NCBI GenBank assembly: GCA_041498815.1
Contig: JBGQJC010000005.1
Coordinates: 2,629 to 66,628 of the forward strand
Direction: 5' to 3'
DNA from: Alphaproteobacteria bacterium
Lineage (GTDB): Bacteria > Pseudomonadota > Alphaproteobacteria > DATDPM01
DNA length: 64,000 nt
Positions 22,337 to 40,964 of the stretch are shown piece after piece. A model generated the notes under the pieces. It did no database searches. It was not told the DNA's origin and saw nothing but the letters and a program-made list of their open reading frames with translations. A program made the position numbers and the translations under genes. The stretch's first letter is position 1. Each line of letters starts with the position of its first letter.

Positions 22337-22846
22337 CTACCGTTCGGCTTGGGATTTCGTGCACCAGGGCTGGCGCTCGCCGCCGCCGTAAGCCCGCACC
22401 AGGCCGGAGCGAAGCATGAGATCGGCGACATTCTCGCCGCTCAAAGTGTCGACCTCGGCCAAAACTCTGCCGCCGTATTTGTCGGAGCGGATGTCCTTAA
22501 GCGTCACGCGGCCGCCTGCTACCACCGCCGCAAGCCGGTCGCGCGCGGCCTCCGCCAGTTTGAGTTCCTTATCGCATTGCGGCTCGCGAAGTTCCGGTGC
22601 ATCGATGCCCAAGATGCGCACATGGGTCTCGACGTCTTGGCCGAGCCAGATGCGGGCTTTCACGGCGATCGTGTCGCCATCGATGATTTTGACAACTTCC
22701 GCCGGCACCGGGCCGGGAACGGATTCGCCCGCCTGCGCCGCAACCAAACCTGCGATCGCGCAGGCGATCGCGAAACTCACGCCGCGCAATAGACGCCGAT
22801 TTGAATCGTTTCCCGAAACTCTGAACGTCCCGCGCATGGGGCTCAC
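22337..22846 (-). CDS. Thermonuclease (staphylococcal-nuclease/SNase-like) family protein, secreted
   Basis: Signal-peptide-like N-terminus, GDTI...IRILGIDAPE catalytic-core pattern of SNc domains. Confidence 0.7.
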   Translation of the reverse strand: MSPMRGTFRVSGNDSNRRLLRGVSFAIACAIAGLVAAQAGESVPGPVPAEVVKIIDGDTIAVKARIWLGQDVETHVRILGIDAPELREPQCDKELKLAEAARDRLAAVVAGGRVTLKDIRSDKYGGRVLAEVDTLSGENVADLMLRSGLVRAYGGGERQPWCTKSQAER

Positions 22847-22965
22847 AGGGTTGGACTATGCCACGCTGATTCTTTCCGGCCGGTGTATGCCGGCATGCGG
22901 GCAAAGCCCGGGCGTCATAGGAATATCGCCTTTCCAGCCTTGACGAATCAAGCTGAAAAAGGTAA

Positions 22966-23074
22966 ATATCCCTAAGATACGTCTATAAACCTAGACGGGA
23001 TCAGAAATCTATGCACCGCCCGCCCCGTTCCCAGTCGCCGTAACGGGTAGGCTCGGGGCCCTTGGGGCCGCCGC
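22966..23074. repeat. Left copy of a ~107-bp direct repeat (attL-like); duplicated 3' end of the DUF1674 gene
   Basis: About 95% identical to 24791..24897. Contains a second copy of the last ~72 nt of the DUF1674 ORF plus ~34 nt of downstream sequence. Confidence 0.8.
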
Positions 23075-23190
23075 CTCACCTATCGGCGGATTGCTCCAAG
23101 GCCAGCGAGCGCATAGGCGTTATACGCGACAGGAGTAGGGCACCATTTTAAAGCGCATCAAGTTGCTAATTCGCCTTACAAATACACTTA

Positions 23191-23251
23191 TTGACAACCG
23201 GGGCCAATAGTCCTATGTAACCAAAGCGGTTACGTAACCAACTTGGTTACG
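23191..23251 (+). promoter_or_regulatory. Sigma70-like promoter (TTGACA-17-TATGTA) overlapping two tandem palindromic operators GTAACC-N5-GGTTAC
   Basis: TTGACAaccggggccaatagtccTATGTAACCaaagcGGTTACGTAACCaacttGGTTAC, 25-85 bp upstream of the higB GTG. Typical autoregulated TA operator architecture. Confidence 0.6.
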
Positions 23252-23275
23252 ATTTGTTAATGGGTCTGCGATAGC

Positions 23276-23554
23276 GTGGCCATTGAAAGCTTCAGGCATA
23301 AGGGACTGCAGGAGCTATTCATTAATGGGAAATCCAAACGAATCAATCAGAACCACCGCAACAAACTTATCGAGTTAATGGATATTTTAGACGCAGCCAC
23401 AGCAACGAAAGATTTGGAAGGCGTAAATGACTTTCATCCACTAAGGGGAAACAGAAAGGGCGAATATTCGATGCACGTGAGCGGAAATTGGTGCCTTACG
23501 TTTGAATTTGAAGACGGGGAAGCTCGCAATTTGGATTACGAGGATTATCACTAA
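23276..23554 (+). CDS. higB: HigB toxin (RelE/ParE superfamily mRNA interferase, killer protein)
   Basis: 92 aa; SFRHKGLQELF...HPLRGNRKGEYSMHVSGNWCLTFEFEDGEARNLDYEDYH matches the HigB family pattern end to end. GTG start. Low-GC. Confidence 0.85.
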   Translation: MAIESFRHKGLQELFINGKSKRINQNHRNKLIELMDILDAATATKDLEGVNDFHPLRGNRKGEYSMHVSGNWCLTFEFEDGEARNLDYEDYH

Positions 23555-23578
23555 ATCTTGTAACTAAGGATAATTGCC

Positions 23579-23881
23579 ATGAAGCGGAATAGGCGTCCCA
23601 CTGCCCCAGGAACCATCTTGCGTAAGTATTATCTTACGCCTCGACAGATTTCTGTCGCGCAGCTAGCGACGGCGGCGGGAATTAGCAGGAAACACGCGAG
23701 CAACATCACGAATAACAAGGCATCTATTACGCCCGAGGTGGCGTATCGGCTCGGCAAGGTATTGAACACGACCCCGCAGTTTTGGATAAATCTGCAGAAC
23801 GCCGTTTCTCTGCACGACGTGCACCGCAGGCTAGCTACATGGAGGCCCGCCGAGGTCCACCCCTCCGCAGTATCGTGCTAG
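23579..23881 (+). CDS. higA: HigA antitoxin (XRE-family HTH, addiction module antidote)
   Basis: 100 aa; helix-turn-helix SVAQLATAAGISRKHASNI...PEVAYRLGKVLNTTPQFWINLQ typical of COG3093 HigA. 24 bp downstream of higB. Confidence 0.85.
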   Translation: MKRNRRPTAPGTILRKYYLTPRQISVAQLATAAGISRKHASNITNNKASITPEVAYRLGKVLNTTPQFWINLQNAVSLHDVHRRLATWRPAEVHPSAVSC

Positions 23882-23886
23882 GCTGC

Positions 23887-24036
23887 CTACTTCCTAGAAT
23901 TTTTAAGGGCGGTGGCCTCCGGGCTGCCGCCCTTCTTCGTTTGGGCCTTACGCGGCTTCGGCGGCATACTGAGCGCCCGCTTTAGCGCCTCATCGCGGCG
24001 CTTCTCATCTTCAGCCTTTTGTTTGCGAGTTGTCAT
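23887..24036 (-). CDS. Possible 49-aa Lys/Arg-rich small protein (MTTRKQKAEDEKRRDEALKRAL...), uncertain
   Basis: Open frame on the minus strand in a GC-rich stretch between higA and the HEPN gene. Its ATG overlaps the HEPN gene ATG divergently. It competes with a possible N-terminal extension of the HEPN gene (plus-strand ORF from 23912). Confidence 0.2.
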   Translation of the reverse strand: MTTRKQKAEDEKRRDEALKRALSMPPKPRKAQTKKGGSPEATALKNSRK

Positions 24037-24682
24037 GTTCGTTCCCAAAGAAACCATACTCTGGGCATTCCAAGATTATCCAGCCGAAGCTGCAATTATC
24101 GGGCGACTTCTTGCTGGCTATGGTGATTTGGAATTTACCCTTCTAACGTGCGTCGTGGCCGTGAGTAGGGACGTAAATACTTCCATCCGCACACTGTTCC
24201 GAGTGCGGGGAGAAAAACAACGAATCCAAATCGCGGATGCCATAATTCGGCACGCCTATAAGAAGGCCGGGTTATATGAGCCTTACTGTGAGGGCATTGG
24301 AGCTATGGAGTTTTGCCGTCAAATCCGAAATCAATATGCCCATTGCCATTGGATTTCCTACAAAAAGCAACAGACCGGTCTGTTTTTCACAGACCTAGAA
24401 GATGTTGCCAAACAAAATTCCGATGACCCAACAGTGCAGGAATTGCACGTTGATGTACCTCTTCTCGACAGCCAAGAGGCGTACTTTAGCTACACGATGA
24501 GCTGTCTAGTTTTTTTGAATCTGGAATATAAGCGGCTGACGGGGCAATCACCCACCCATACCTTATCAATGCCGAAAAAACGGCCTCGACCGAAGCTGCA
24601 TAATCCTCCAGAAGAGCATCCCCCTCCGACGCTAAAAGAAGTACGTGAAACCCCTCCTGAATCACAGGAAGAGGGATCGTAA
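24035..24682 (+). CDS. HEPN-domain protein (Abi-like putative RNase) with Pro/Glu-rich C-terminal tail
   Basis: Canonical HEPN R-N-x-x-x-H motif in hydrophobic context (FCRQIRNQYAHCHWISY). ~215 aa. GC ~45%. The ORF may extend to an ATG at 23912. Confidence 0.5.
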   Translation: MFVPKETILWAFQDYPAEAAIIGRLLAGYGDLEFTLLTCVVAVSRDVNTSIRTLFRVRGEKQRIQIADAIIRHAYKKAGLYEPYCEGIGAMEFCRQIRNQYAHCHWISYKKQQTGLFFTDLEDVAKQNSDDPTVQELHVDVPLLDSQEAYFSYTMSCLVFLNLEYKRLTGQSPTHTLSMPKKRPRPKLHNPPEEHPPPTLKEVRETPPESQEEGS

Positions 24683-24790
24683 TTTCTTTTTCCTGAATCG
24701 CCATCCATCCGCGCTCCTTGAAAAACAAGGAACTCGAAACACGGTGGATTTTGGAATAAGGGAACGTGCGCCAAGTATATAATCGCGCTT

Positions 24791-24897
24791 ATATCCCTAA
24801 GATACGTCTATAAACCTAGGTAGATCAGAAATCTATGCACAGCCCGCCCCGTTCCCAATCGCCGTAACGGGTGGGCTCGGGGCCCTTGGGGCCGCCG
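24791..24897. repeat. Right copy of ~107-bp direct repeat (attR-like) covering the authentic 3' end of the DUF1674 gene
   Basis: See left copy; 5 mismatches and 1-2 indels over ~107 bp. Confidence 0.8.
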
Positions 24898-24989
24898 GTC
24901 TCGGGAACCTTGGCGGGCGGCTTTGCTGCGGCTGCTGGCGCCGGATCGTTCGCCGCTTTCTTTTCGTTGCCGGGATGAGATTCGCTCAT
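24825..24989 (-). CDS. DUF1674 family small protein (SdhAF4-like)
   Basis: Conserved C-terminal GPEPTRYGDWERGG motif of DUF1674/SDHAF4. Start taken at MSESHPG; an alternative ATG lies at 25025. Confidence 0.65.
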   Translation of the reverse strand: MSESHPGNEKKAANDPAPAAAAKPPAKVPETGGPKGPEPTRYGDWERGGLCIDF

Positions 24990-25168
24990 GGCCCGCAAAA
25001 AGCCCCCGATGTCATCAAATGTCAACAGCGTCGGCTCGCGCTTGCAACAAGTGCGGGAAACGAAGCGTGCGGCCTTGAAGCGATGCGCCGGTTTCTTATC
25101 TAACCTCCAGCTTTCAAAGGTGCTGGAATGGCGCGCCTGCCGACAAAAGACGCCACCGAGGCGGCGAT

Positions 25169-39218: not shown

Positions 39219-39510
39219 GGGCCGCAGCTTGGCGGGGTCACTCCCTGCTGTCCAGAACGGGGGGCTCTGACCGCGGGAACCCACTGGTTTTGCGGGGCCG
39301 GGCGGGGCTTTGTACAGAAAATGGCGATTGTATAGATGACAAACCCAATGGATTTGCGTGCGCGCGGTGCCACACCCTAGCTTTTCTGCCGTTGGCAGGC
39401 GTGCGCGCCGCACATTCCCGTTGCGCCCAGCGCAATTTGCTGCGAGAAAATATCAGGATGTTAAGAGTTATTTAACCAAACATTAACGATTTATTAATCT
39501 TTATTAAGAA

Positions 39511-39597
39511 TGGTGGGGTCGGCGGGATTCGAACCCGCAATCCGTGGGAGGAAGCCGCATCCAAAGCGGCTGCGTTTACCTATTTCGCCACGACCCC
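39511..39597 (-). tRNA. Class-II (long variable arm, Leu-like body) tRNA, 87 nt, with anticodon loop UUUGGAU (anticodon UGG by standard numbering); identity uncertain
   Basis: Acceptor GGGGUCG/CGACCCC, discriminator A73, 3-bp D-stem with Leu-like D-loop AAAUAGGUAAA, anticodon stem GCCGC/GCGGC, 15-nt variable arm, T-arm GCGGG-UUCGAAU-CCCGC, CCA encoded. Confidence 0.7.
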
Positions 39598-39605
39598 ATA
39601 CGCGA

Positions 39606-39680
39606 TGGCGGACCGGGGGAGATTCGAACTCCCGACCAACGGAGTAACAGTCCGTTGCTCTGCCACTGAGCTACCGGTCC
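39606..39680 (-). tRNA. tRNA-Asn (anticodon GUU)
   Basis: Acceptor GGACCGG, D-arm GCUC-AGUGGCA-GAGC, anticodon loop CUGUUAC, T-loop UUCGAAU, discriminator G, CCA encoded. 75 nt. Confidence 0.85.
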
Positions 39681-39689
39681 AAATCGCGT

Positions 39690-40964
39690 AGCGGGCGTGG
39701 GGCGGCCCTCGGTGTCCAACTTTGGGCCGCCCCCGCCCCGACCAATCCGTCTGCGATGTATCGTCGCAGGCGAACAAAACGAGTCCTAACCCTCCTAAAT
39801 ACTTAACGCAAGGGGGGTTTGTCCAGATGTTGTGGATTTTTACAATGCCGGGCCACAAGTCAATTGGGAAAGACAAGACAAGGCCGACAACGGCCTTTCG
39901 CAGTGGGCCAGTGACGCTTCATCCTCTCAAATTCGAGGAGGCAGTTGCCGGGCTCGTTAAAGTTAAGCCAGACGCGCCATTGGTGCCCGGTAAAGAAGCC
40001 TCTTCCCCTCGGCCCCGCGCACTGCGTTCATCGCCCGCTCGCCGTCCGTAATCTTCCGGCTGTTCCATCGAAATTCAAACTCCCGCAAATAGCGGCTTAA
40101 GTGGCGTTCGCTCACATGATGGAACGTGCCGAAAATGCCGCGCTTCAAGAGCGAGTGGTACGACTCAGCAAAATTGATATGGATGATGCCTCGGACGTAG
40201 GATTTCGAGTGATTGATGACTGAGTGCCACGCGAAACGCTTTTTAAGACCGCGGTACGCTTGGTATTGGTCCGTGATGATATGCGCCGTGTCGTTTACCG
40301 CGAGTTGGATAATCGGCTTCAGGCTGCCAGCCTTCGAATTGGGGATGTGAAACGTGCGGGCTTCACCTTGGCGGTCAACAAGGGTCATAACGACCATCTT
40401 ATGAGCGGTTCCGCGTCCTACCCGCCGCTTGCGCATATTATTGCTGAATTTGCCGCCGATATAAGTTTCATCTACTTCGACAGTGCCGCCGTCTTTCCCG
40501 AGCATTCCGATTAATGGCGGCTGAGACATCGCAAGCCGGACGCGATGGCATAAAAACCATGCGCTTTTGTAAGTAAGACCAAGCTCGCGCTTTAGCTGGT
40601 TCGCGCTCACACCCTTTTTCGAGCTGCACATTTGGAAGATGGCATATAGCCATTTCCCGAGCGGGATGTGTGAGTCCTCGAAGATGGTCCCCACCCGCGC
40701 CGTGAATTGCTTACGGCATTTGCCGCACTTGCGGAGCCCAAGGCGCGTTGTGCTGCCTTCGATGCTGTAAATCTTCTCGGCGCTGTTGCAATGCGGGCAA
40801 ACCGGCCCATTCGGCCAACGTAGGCCCTCTACAAAGGCAATCGCGGCCTTCTCGTCGTTAATGAATTGTGCTATCTCATTGATATTCATGGCCGTATCTC
40901 CTATTACGGCCTCATTGTAGACCCTCCATTGGGTCTGTCAAGTATATAATCGCCCAGAAAATGA
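39690..40964 (-). mobile_element. IS1595-family insertion sequence (boundaries approximate)
   Basis: Single transposase ORF in a lower-GC segment. A direct 8-9-bp match (C)AAATCGCG at 39681-39689 and 40964-40972 may be a target-site duplication. No convincing terminal inverted repeats were found by eye. Confidence 0.4.
39963..40889 (-). CDS. IS1595-family transposase (DDE transposase with N-terminal zinc-ribbon)
   Basis: N-terminal CPHC...CGKC zinc-ribbon, followed by the DDE domain pattern typical of IS1595/ISXO2-like transposases (308 aa). Confidence 0.8.
   Translation of the reverse strand: MNINEIAQFINDEKAAIAFVEGLRWPNGPVCPHCNSAEKIYSIEGSTTRLGLRKCGKCRKQFTARVGTIFEDSHIPLGKWLYAIFQMCSSKKGVSANQLKRELGLTYKSAWFLCHRVRLAMSQPPLIGMLGKDGGTVEVDETYIGGKFSNNMRKRRVGRGTAHKMVVMTLVDRQGEARTFHIPNSKAGSLKPIIQLAVNDTAHIITDQYQAYRGLKKRFAWHSVINHSKSYVRGIIHINFAESYHSLLKRGIFGTFHHVSERHLSRYLREFEFRWNSRKITDGERAMNAVRGAEGKRLLYRAPMARLA

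Follow-up and report, generated by a model that had tools for sequence, protein, structure and literature searches.

A probable decayed IS1595-family insertion sequence carrying higBA and a candidate HEPN-type gene between two host genes of an alphaproteobacterium

The islet and its boundaries

Between a gene for a staphylococcal-nuclease-like (SNase) protein and a gene of the DUF1674 family, the 64,000-nucleotide stretch of alphaproteobacterial DNA studied here (contig JBGQJC010000005.1 of assembly GCA_041498815.1; hereafter the window) contains a segment of about 1.7 kb in which the toxin-antitoxin (TA) genes higB and higA are followed by a third gene, here called gene 3. Two direct repeats of about 107 bp, DR-L and DR-R, enclose this islet. 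The observations made in a first-pass annotation of the DNA (direct repeats, a dip in guanine-plus-cytosine (GC) content, the genes higB and higA, and an RNxxxH motif in a third protein) were all reproduced, but the islet is a decayed and immobile fragment of an insertion sequence (IS) between two host genes, and thus the debris of a mobile element and not a defence module of three genes. We consider it likely that the islet represents the right-hand 1.7 kb (23072-24787) of a cargo-carrying element of the IS1595 family, and that the repeats stem from an illegitimate join. The locus contains the following features (ORF, open reading frame; HTH, helix-turn-helix; IR, inverted repeat).

22337-22846, minus strand: host SNase-like gene (PF00565, E = 3e-9)
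22966-23073: left direct repeat DR-L, an orphan DUF1674 3' end (last 24 codons and stop) with 34 nt past the stop
23072-23116, plus strand: 3' remnant of an IS1595-family transposase gene, the last 14 codons, encoding RLTYRRIAPRPASA and then a stop
23191-23250, plus strand: higBA promoter (TTGACA, 17-nt spacer, TATGTA) with operators, two tandem 17-bp palindromes
23276-23554, plus strand: higB, RelE-fold mRNA interferase toxin, 92 aa (PF05015, E = 6e-20; phrog_3066, E = 1e-27)
23579-23881, plus strand: higA, HTH antitoxin, 100 aa (TIGR02607, E = 5e-24; PF01381, E = 4e-9)
23887-24057, minus strand: small basic ORF, 56 aa (49 aa from the start at 24036), with the motif KRDEVLKRMLKTPPKPHKP
23905-23934, plus strand: terminator-like GC-rich hairpin after higA, 13-bp stem followed by a T-rich tract
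24035-24682, plus strand: gene 3, 215 aa, conserved IS passenger and candidate HEPN-type nuclease
24486-24704, minus strand: ORF4, 72 aa, in convergent orientation to gene 3, whose codons 151-215 it overlaps
24766-24787, minus strand: right terminal IR of an IS1595-family element, reading CGCGATTATATACTTGGCGCACG inward from the tip
24791-24897: right direct repeat DR-R, the 3' end of the live DUF1674 gene (final 24 codons and stop) with the 34 nt downstream
24825-25025, minus strand: host DUF1674 gene (PF07896, E = 5e-17)

The GC content is 49.4% across 23074-24790, against 64% in the whole window. That this segment was inserted between the SNase and DUF1674 genes, as the first-pass annotation had proposed, is supported by a metagenome scan with the SNase protein, which gave 30 loci with 40-64% identity. 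In 20 of these, the DUF1674 gene is located directly upstream of the SNase gene, and HtpX and Acs are often placed as in the window. These 20 distant relatives, with the gene order HtpX, DUF1674, SNase, provide the empty sites that had been suggested as a check: the spacer between the DUF1674 stop and the SNase start measures 54-251 bp, and it contains neither higBA, gene 3 nor a duplicated repeat. In the window, the spacer would be 153 bp long without the islet and one repeat. The scan yielded no close relative of this genome, the best identity being 60%, and hence no exact empty site. A Logan assembly (L074, SRR29604901) carries an identical islet; it was considered as a possible circle or variant, but this was rejected, as it represents the same strain with a contig that is broken inside the repeats.

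The repeat of about 107 bp occurs in two copies only in the window, with 0 expected by chance. It was correctly recognized earlier that the right copy contains the authentic last codons and stop of the DUF1674 gene and that the left copy is an orphan of this 3' end; the orphan adjoins the promoter side of the SNase-like gene. Alignment of the two copies shows a 29-nt block that is completely identical, followed by a 4/3-nt indel patch and by 75 nt with 96% identity.

The ends of the islet carry landmarks of an IS. On the left, the sequence at 23072-23116, which reads CGCCTCACCTATCGGCGGATT...TAG, is fused to the orphan DUF1674 copy. Within it, CGCCTCACCTATCGGCGGA agrees with the consensus of the transposase 3' end at 10 loci, GGCAAGCGCCTCACCTATCGGCGGACT, which encodes GKRLTYRRT. 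A 16-nt pattern for this transposase end, YTSACNTATCGGCGGA, is found once in the window, against 0.01 expected occurrences, and in the fetched loci it is confined to transposase 3' ends. On the right, the terminal IR has one mismatch to a 15-mer IR core that is common to 11 complete elements, and the core GCGATTATATACTTG is matched perfectly at 24772-24786 (minus strand). The degenerate IR pattern GCGATTRTATACTTG has three matches in the window where 0.08 would be expected; apart from the right IR of the islet, it matches both ends of a second IS. The distance of the right IR from the gene 3 stop is 106 bp, and it varies from 78 to 310 bp in complete elements. No left IR could be found in 22850-24740; a weak candidate, GGCG-TTATA at 23116, was rejected. 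Thus, of an intact element with two terminal IRs and a transposase with a zinc ribbon and a DDE_Tnp_IS1595 domain, only the right IR and the last 14 transposase codons are present. Since the left IR and all the other transposase codons are gone, the remnant cannot move by itself. The identity of the repeats ends at 23073 and the transposase consensus begins at 23072, which implies a microhomology of at least 2 nt at the joint, and of up to 8 nt if the parent element encoded GRR.

Parent elements and passenger genes

The nature of the parent element follows from the surroundings of gene 3 homologues. A scan with one genome per species gave 40 loci, almost all from Alphaproteobacteria. In half of these (20/40), a transposase of about 310 aa is encoded immediately upstream of the gene 3 homologue and on the same strand; these transposases carry PF12762 and PF12760 and match NF033547 (IS1595 family). 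In 11 loci, the transposase and the gene 3 homologue are jointly enclosed by terminal IRs with the consensus GGCGATTATATACTTGAC. Target duplications, 8 bp long and AT-rich, are clean in six of these loci (L018, L024, L027, L029, L037, L039) and approximate in three others (L005, L028, L038). The bracketing IRs and target duplications therefore define transposable IS elements of 2.0-2.9 kb, in which gene 3 is a passenger. The content of the slot that separates the transposase from the small ORF is variable, which suggests that the slot is a hot spot for cargo in these elements:

L027, 5187-5810: ClpP-like protease (PF00574, E = 6e-15)
L037, 4849-5193: GIY-YIG nuclease
L026, 1991-2972: nested IS630-like element
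L016, 5318-5823: small ORFs, as also found in this slot elsewhere

In the window, higBA with its own promoter and terminator hairpin fills this slot. The parent of the islet would have had the order left IR, transposase gene, variable slot with higBA, small ORF (minus strand), gene 3, ORF4 (minus strand), right IR. By the ISfinder table, it would presumably fall into the ISNwi1-type subgroup, whose ends take the form ggnnatTAT and whose passenger-bearing variants are designated 'ISNwi1+'. Members of the IS1595 family are known for 8-bp duplications and a transposase with a zinc finger, and normally have a single gene, the transposase alone being needed (PMC8101967).

The identification of HigB as a RelE-type toxin and of HigA as its partner holds, with the family matches given above, and the same applies to the promoter with tandem palindromic operators. 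The hexamers TTGACA (23191-96) and TATGTA (23214-19) can be read from the sequence, and two adjacent GTAACC-N5-GGTTAC palindromes (23217-33 and 23234-50) overlap the -10 region and are the presumed HigA operators. The promoter was missed in a strict promoter scan because its -10 hexamer ends in A. As in other members of the family, HigB would cut ribosome-bound mRNA and be neutralised by HigA, and HigA would repress the higBA promoter through the two palindromes. With an adjacent toxin-first pair and palindromic operators over the promoter, higBA is, as far as can be judged from its sequence, an ordinary autonomous type II TA cassette. Its closest HigB relatives are 66-67% identical and occur in unrelated contexts. 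The nearest HigBA pair outside the strain (66% identity; L075, 1118-2415) is situated between queC-like and PTPS/queD-like genes and is followed by a gene for a 226-aa protein for which no Pfam match is on record; this gene was considered as a gene 3 homologue and rejected, since it is unrelated.

Gene 3 carries the sequence IRNQYAHCHW, which conforms to the RNxxxH form of the HEPN motif (Rx4-6H). An alignment of 40 diverse family members speaks for translation from the ATG at 24035 and shows that E18, G23, A27, G28, Y29, C94, R98, N99, H103, L144 and E148 are invariant. The motif noticed in the first-pass annotation is thus strictly conserved. The HEPN assignment that was based on it is supported less evenly: the profile searches that had been proposed as a check gave no HEPN or Abi family match (Abi_2, AbiU2, Swt1 and others), and neither Pfam, PADLOC, NCBIfam nor PHROGs contained a profile that matched. 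Even at E <= 5, none of the 40 family members had a match in Pfam. A profile search of the Protein Data Bank (PDB) gave nothing, Foldseek searches against PDB and BFVD gave nothing significant, and a tblastn search of plasmids gave no match. The AlphaFold2 model is of good quality (predicted local distance difference test (pLDDT) score 92, predicted template modelling score 0.85). It is composed mainly of helices, and a small sheet follows the motif. Support for a HEPN fold is no more than suggestive. On the whole, gene 3 is more likely than not a member of the HEPN superfamily. The family is large and without annotation in the libraries searched, with 146 homologues at E <= 1e-3, none with a Pfam domain, and 1008 representative clusters in a library clustered at 50% identity. 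In L036, L041, L042, L043 and L025, the gene 3 homologues appear truncated or split in two ORFs, which suggests frequent decay of the passenger gene.

Two small ORFs on the minus strand overlap the ends of gene 3. The first is oriented divergently to gene 3, with which it shares part of its start codon in the sequence CATG (24034-24037). It is found in the same relative position in 16/41 loci, 13 of which also have the transposase, and its codon-position differences (0.47, 0.46 and 0.64) show the third position to be the most variable. Two pipelines, those of the Logan assembly and of NCBI (P0260), called it as a gene, in the case of NCBI for a protein of 49 aa; it has no family match in Pfam, PADLOC, NCBIfam or PHROGs, and a search for homologues returned only the ORF itself. 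ORF4 was called as a gene in L074 and likewise has no match in Pfam, PADLOC, NCBIfam or PHROGs. Its homologues, of about 70-130 aa, overlap the gene 3 3' end in 19/41 loci, and the transposase is present in 13 of these. Over the overlap, the differences by codon position (0.57, 0.50 and 0.61) fit the ORF4 frame; the wobble position of gene 3 is the least variable, which indicates that selection acts on the ORF4 frame. The Pro/Glu-rich tail of gene 3 noticed in the first-pass annotation, which has a low pLDDT, is located within this overlap. Since the ORF4 frame, and not that of gene 3, seems to be selected there, the tail is probably not a functional part of the gene 3 protein.

A second IS1595-family element is present elsewhere in the window, at 39323-40954. 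This sister element is complete and has the same type of IR, with its IRs matching at about 30/34 positions, and it is flanked by the 8-bp target duplication CAGAAAAT (39315-22 and 40955-62). Its passenger slot contains two tRNA genes and no protein genes:

39511-39597, minus strand: 87-nt tRNA in the slot
39606-39680: tRNA-Asn(GUU) in the slot
39963-40889, minus strand: transposase (NF033547, E = 3e-59)

No tRNA was found in the 11 other complete elements. In the 87-nt tRNA, the proline anticodon UGG is combined with a long variable arm, as in tRNAs of class II shape, and with A73 and an encoded CCA; a blastn search of E. coli genomes gave no match to this tRNA. We take its D-arm, GUGGCGAAAUAGGUAAACGCA, to resemble that of tRNA-Leu. 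A leucine-type body with a proline anticodon could indicate a mistranslating tRNA or a decaying copy.

Origin of the repeats and competing interpretations

Most likely, the repeats were generated when an IS-free allele and an allele with the IS were joined illegitimately in one event. In one of the alleles, the IS would first have inserted about 31 nt past the DUF1674 stop. A single join of this kind, with a microhomology of 2-8 nt, may then have connected the IS-free allele, at 23073, to the 3' end of the transposase gene in the other allele. In this event the IS-free allele would have been broken inside DUF1674, and ordinary homology on the right would have completed the exchange. Such a join can be envisaged as homology-facilitated illegitimate recombination of incoming DNA, or as an unequal exchange. 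The outcome would be that the resident DUF1674 3' end was orphaned to the left of the remnant, with a second copy on the live gene at the right, and the product would have the order host-left, DR-L, transposase 3' end, remaining part of the IS, right IR, DR-R, DUF1674 body. Participation of two alleles would fit the differences between the repeat copies and the sequence CTT outside the IR tip, which differs from the TAA before DR-L. The copies differ by one indel and four substitutions. Three differences affect the coding part, of which two are synonymous and one replaces R in the orphan by L in the live copy. The live DUF1674 gene encodes this L in the sequence ERGGLCIDF (24840-24842), and the orphan the R at 23016-23018. 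Since R occurs in 17/20 relatives, the functional gene carries the derived residue, and the orphan has kept the consensus.

The first-pass annotation took the repeats for attL and attR, the integrase-less islet being a product of site-specific integration into the DUF1674 3' end. In such a model, the islet would be comparable to a cis-mobilizable element (CIME), with the integrase supplied in trans. Direct repeats that restore the 3' end of a gene are indeed a classical integration signature, and the empty sites in relatives and the low GC content of the islet agree with it, although empty sites are equally expected after insertion of an IS. We nevertheless regard this origin as very unlikely, since IS features set both repeat edges: instead of an att core, the inner boundaries are the terminal IR on the right, with its tip at 24787 and DR-R beginning 3 nt beyond it, and on the left the truncated transposase gene, which starts at the last bases of DR-L. 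Furthermore, there is no third copy of the repeat, a crude regular expression found no HxLRH[ST]-type tyrosine-recombinase motif in any real ORF of the 64-kb window, and family searches detected no integrase or recombinase among the islet genes, the cargo being without anything that resembles a recombination module. A search of the islet against Rfam gave no match. A route that requires no foreign allele and leads to the same junctions as the two-allele join would be insertion of the full IS at this site, a tandem duplication by unequal exchange between sister chromatids, in which DUF1674 was paired with the 3' end of the transposase gene, and subsequent loss of the complete upstream IS copy. 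This is possible, if unlikely, and it fits the flanks less well. It requires two events, precise loss of the upstream IS predicts CTTATATC before DR-L where TAAATATC is observed, and all five repeat differences would have to postdate the duplication, yet it is the orphan that retains the consensus R.

Competing interpretations also exist for the genes. The notion that higB, higA and gene 3 form one three-gene TA or abortive infection module, with HigA neutralising or repressing both toxins, was suggested by their adjacency on the same strand in the window. It has become extremely improbable: no HigB or HigA homologue occurs within 6 kb of a gene 3 homologue in any of the 40 loci, half of which have the IS1595-family transposase upstream instead, HigBA relatives occur without gene 3, and higA is set apart from gene 3 by a terminator hairpin as well as by an antisense gene. 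Gene 3 is better considered as an independent transcription unit, which may encode a solo HEPN ribonuclease similar to HepS and could be held in check by one or both of the small overlapping antisense genes; as a means of addiction or defence, such a module might aid persistence of the IS. That the small ORF, gene 3 and ORF4 indeed constitute an undescribed HEPN-type toxin/antitoxin or anti-phage unit, integral to an alphaproteobacterial IS1595-family lineage, is a tentative proposal, to which we give clearly less than an even chance. It is also conceivable, though rather doubtful, that gene 3 and its antisense ORFs are no toxin or defence module but serve transposition in an accessory or regulatory role, for instance in target choice or copy-number control. 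The tight linkage to the transposase inside the IRs, the antisense arrangement, which is typical of IS regulation, and the lack of a nuclease family match for gene 3 all agree with such a role. An invariant RNxxxH motif is hard to explain in a pure regulator, however, 15 loci retain gene 3 without a transposase, and members of the IS1595 family normally need only the transposase (PMC8101967).

Several observations weigh against derivation of the islet from an IS by a two-allele join and against gene 3 as its passenger. Neither an IS-free nor a full-IS allele was seen at this exact site, and no close relative with more than 60% identity was found; the recombination scenario is therefore a reconstruction. 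The certain microhomology at the join is just 2 nt. The CTT that separates the IR tip from DR-R, as compared to TAA before DR-L, requires either allelic divergence or an IS tip that is 3 nt longer than that of the other elements. A parent element with higBA in its cargo slot was not found, and in 15/41 loci gene 3 occurs alone, without a detectable transposase or the small ORFs.

Significance and relation to known systems

For genome annotation, the locus shows that repeats which duplicate the 3' end of a gene are no proof of att-site integration, since in this case they probably stem from illegitimate joining at a broken IS. What is new is that a large unannotated family with an RNxxxH motif, together with two antisense ORFs, forms a conserved passenger set of an IS lineage with a swappable cargo slot (HigBA, ClpP-like, GIY-YIG). 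If the proposed function is correct, a simple IS would be equipped with a nuclease of its own for addiction or defence, and the antitoxin genes would lie antisense across both ends of the toxin gene.

The proposed origin of the repeats resembles homology-facilitated illegitimate recombination, a process that was reportedly described by de Vries and Wackernagel in 2002. In this process, a homologous anchor and a microhomology joint allow insertion of foreign DNA, which can duplicate recipient sequences, and this fits the joint between DR-L and the transposase, with the qualification that the process is deduced here from its product alone. The term is also used in PMC6382021. As compared to complete relatives of the IS1595 family, which have a transposase with a zinc ribbon and a DDE_Tnp_IS1595 domain, IRs that start with GGCGATTAT and 8-bp AT-rich target duplications, the copy in the window keeps 14 transposase codons and one IR. 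The higBA cassette shares the toxin-first order, the RelE-fold HigB, the HTH protein HigA and the promoter-overlapping palindromes of HigBA type II systems, and is in no respect unusual.

The passenger set of small ORF, gene 3 and ORF4 is unannotated in the libraries that were searched, and no description of it was found in the literature. With HepS, a solo HEPN anticodon nuclease of prophage Gifsy-1 (PDB 9oik; PMC13043305), gene 3 has no detectable sequence homology. HepS was looked for in the Gifsy-1 prophage of LT2 and is absent from that copy. HepS is prophage-borne and has no partner genes, whereas gene 3 is IS-borne, is overlapped by two small antisense ORFs and is a candidate nuclease. 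TA pairs embedded in transposons of the Tn3 family have been described (PMC7157771), and the arrangement studied here is similar in that a TA cassette is present inside a transposable element and plausibly aids its maintenance. It differs in transposon family, in layout and in the position of the TA genes, and higBA is one of several alternative cargos. If gene 3 encodes an active HEPN nuclease under antisense control, addiction or defence functions built into insertion sequences would stand beside those carried by Tn3-family transposons and prophages.

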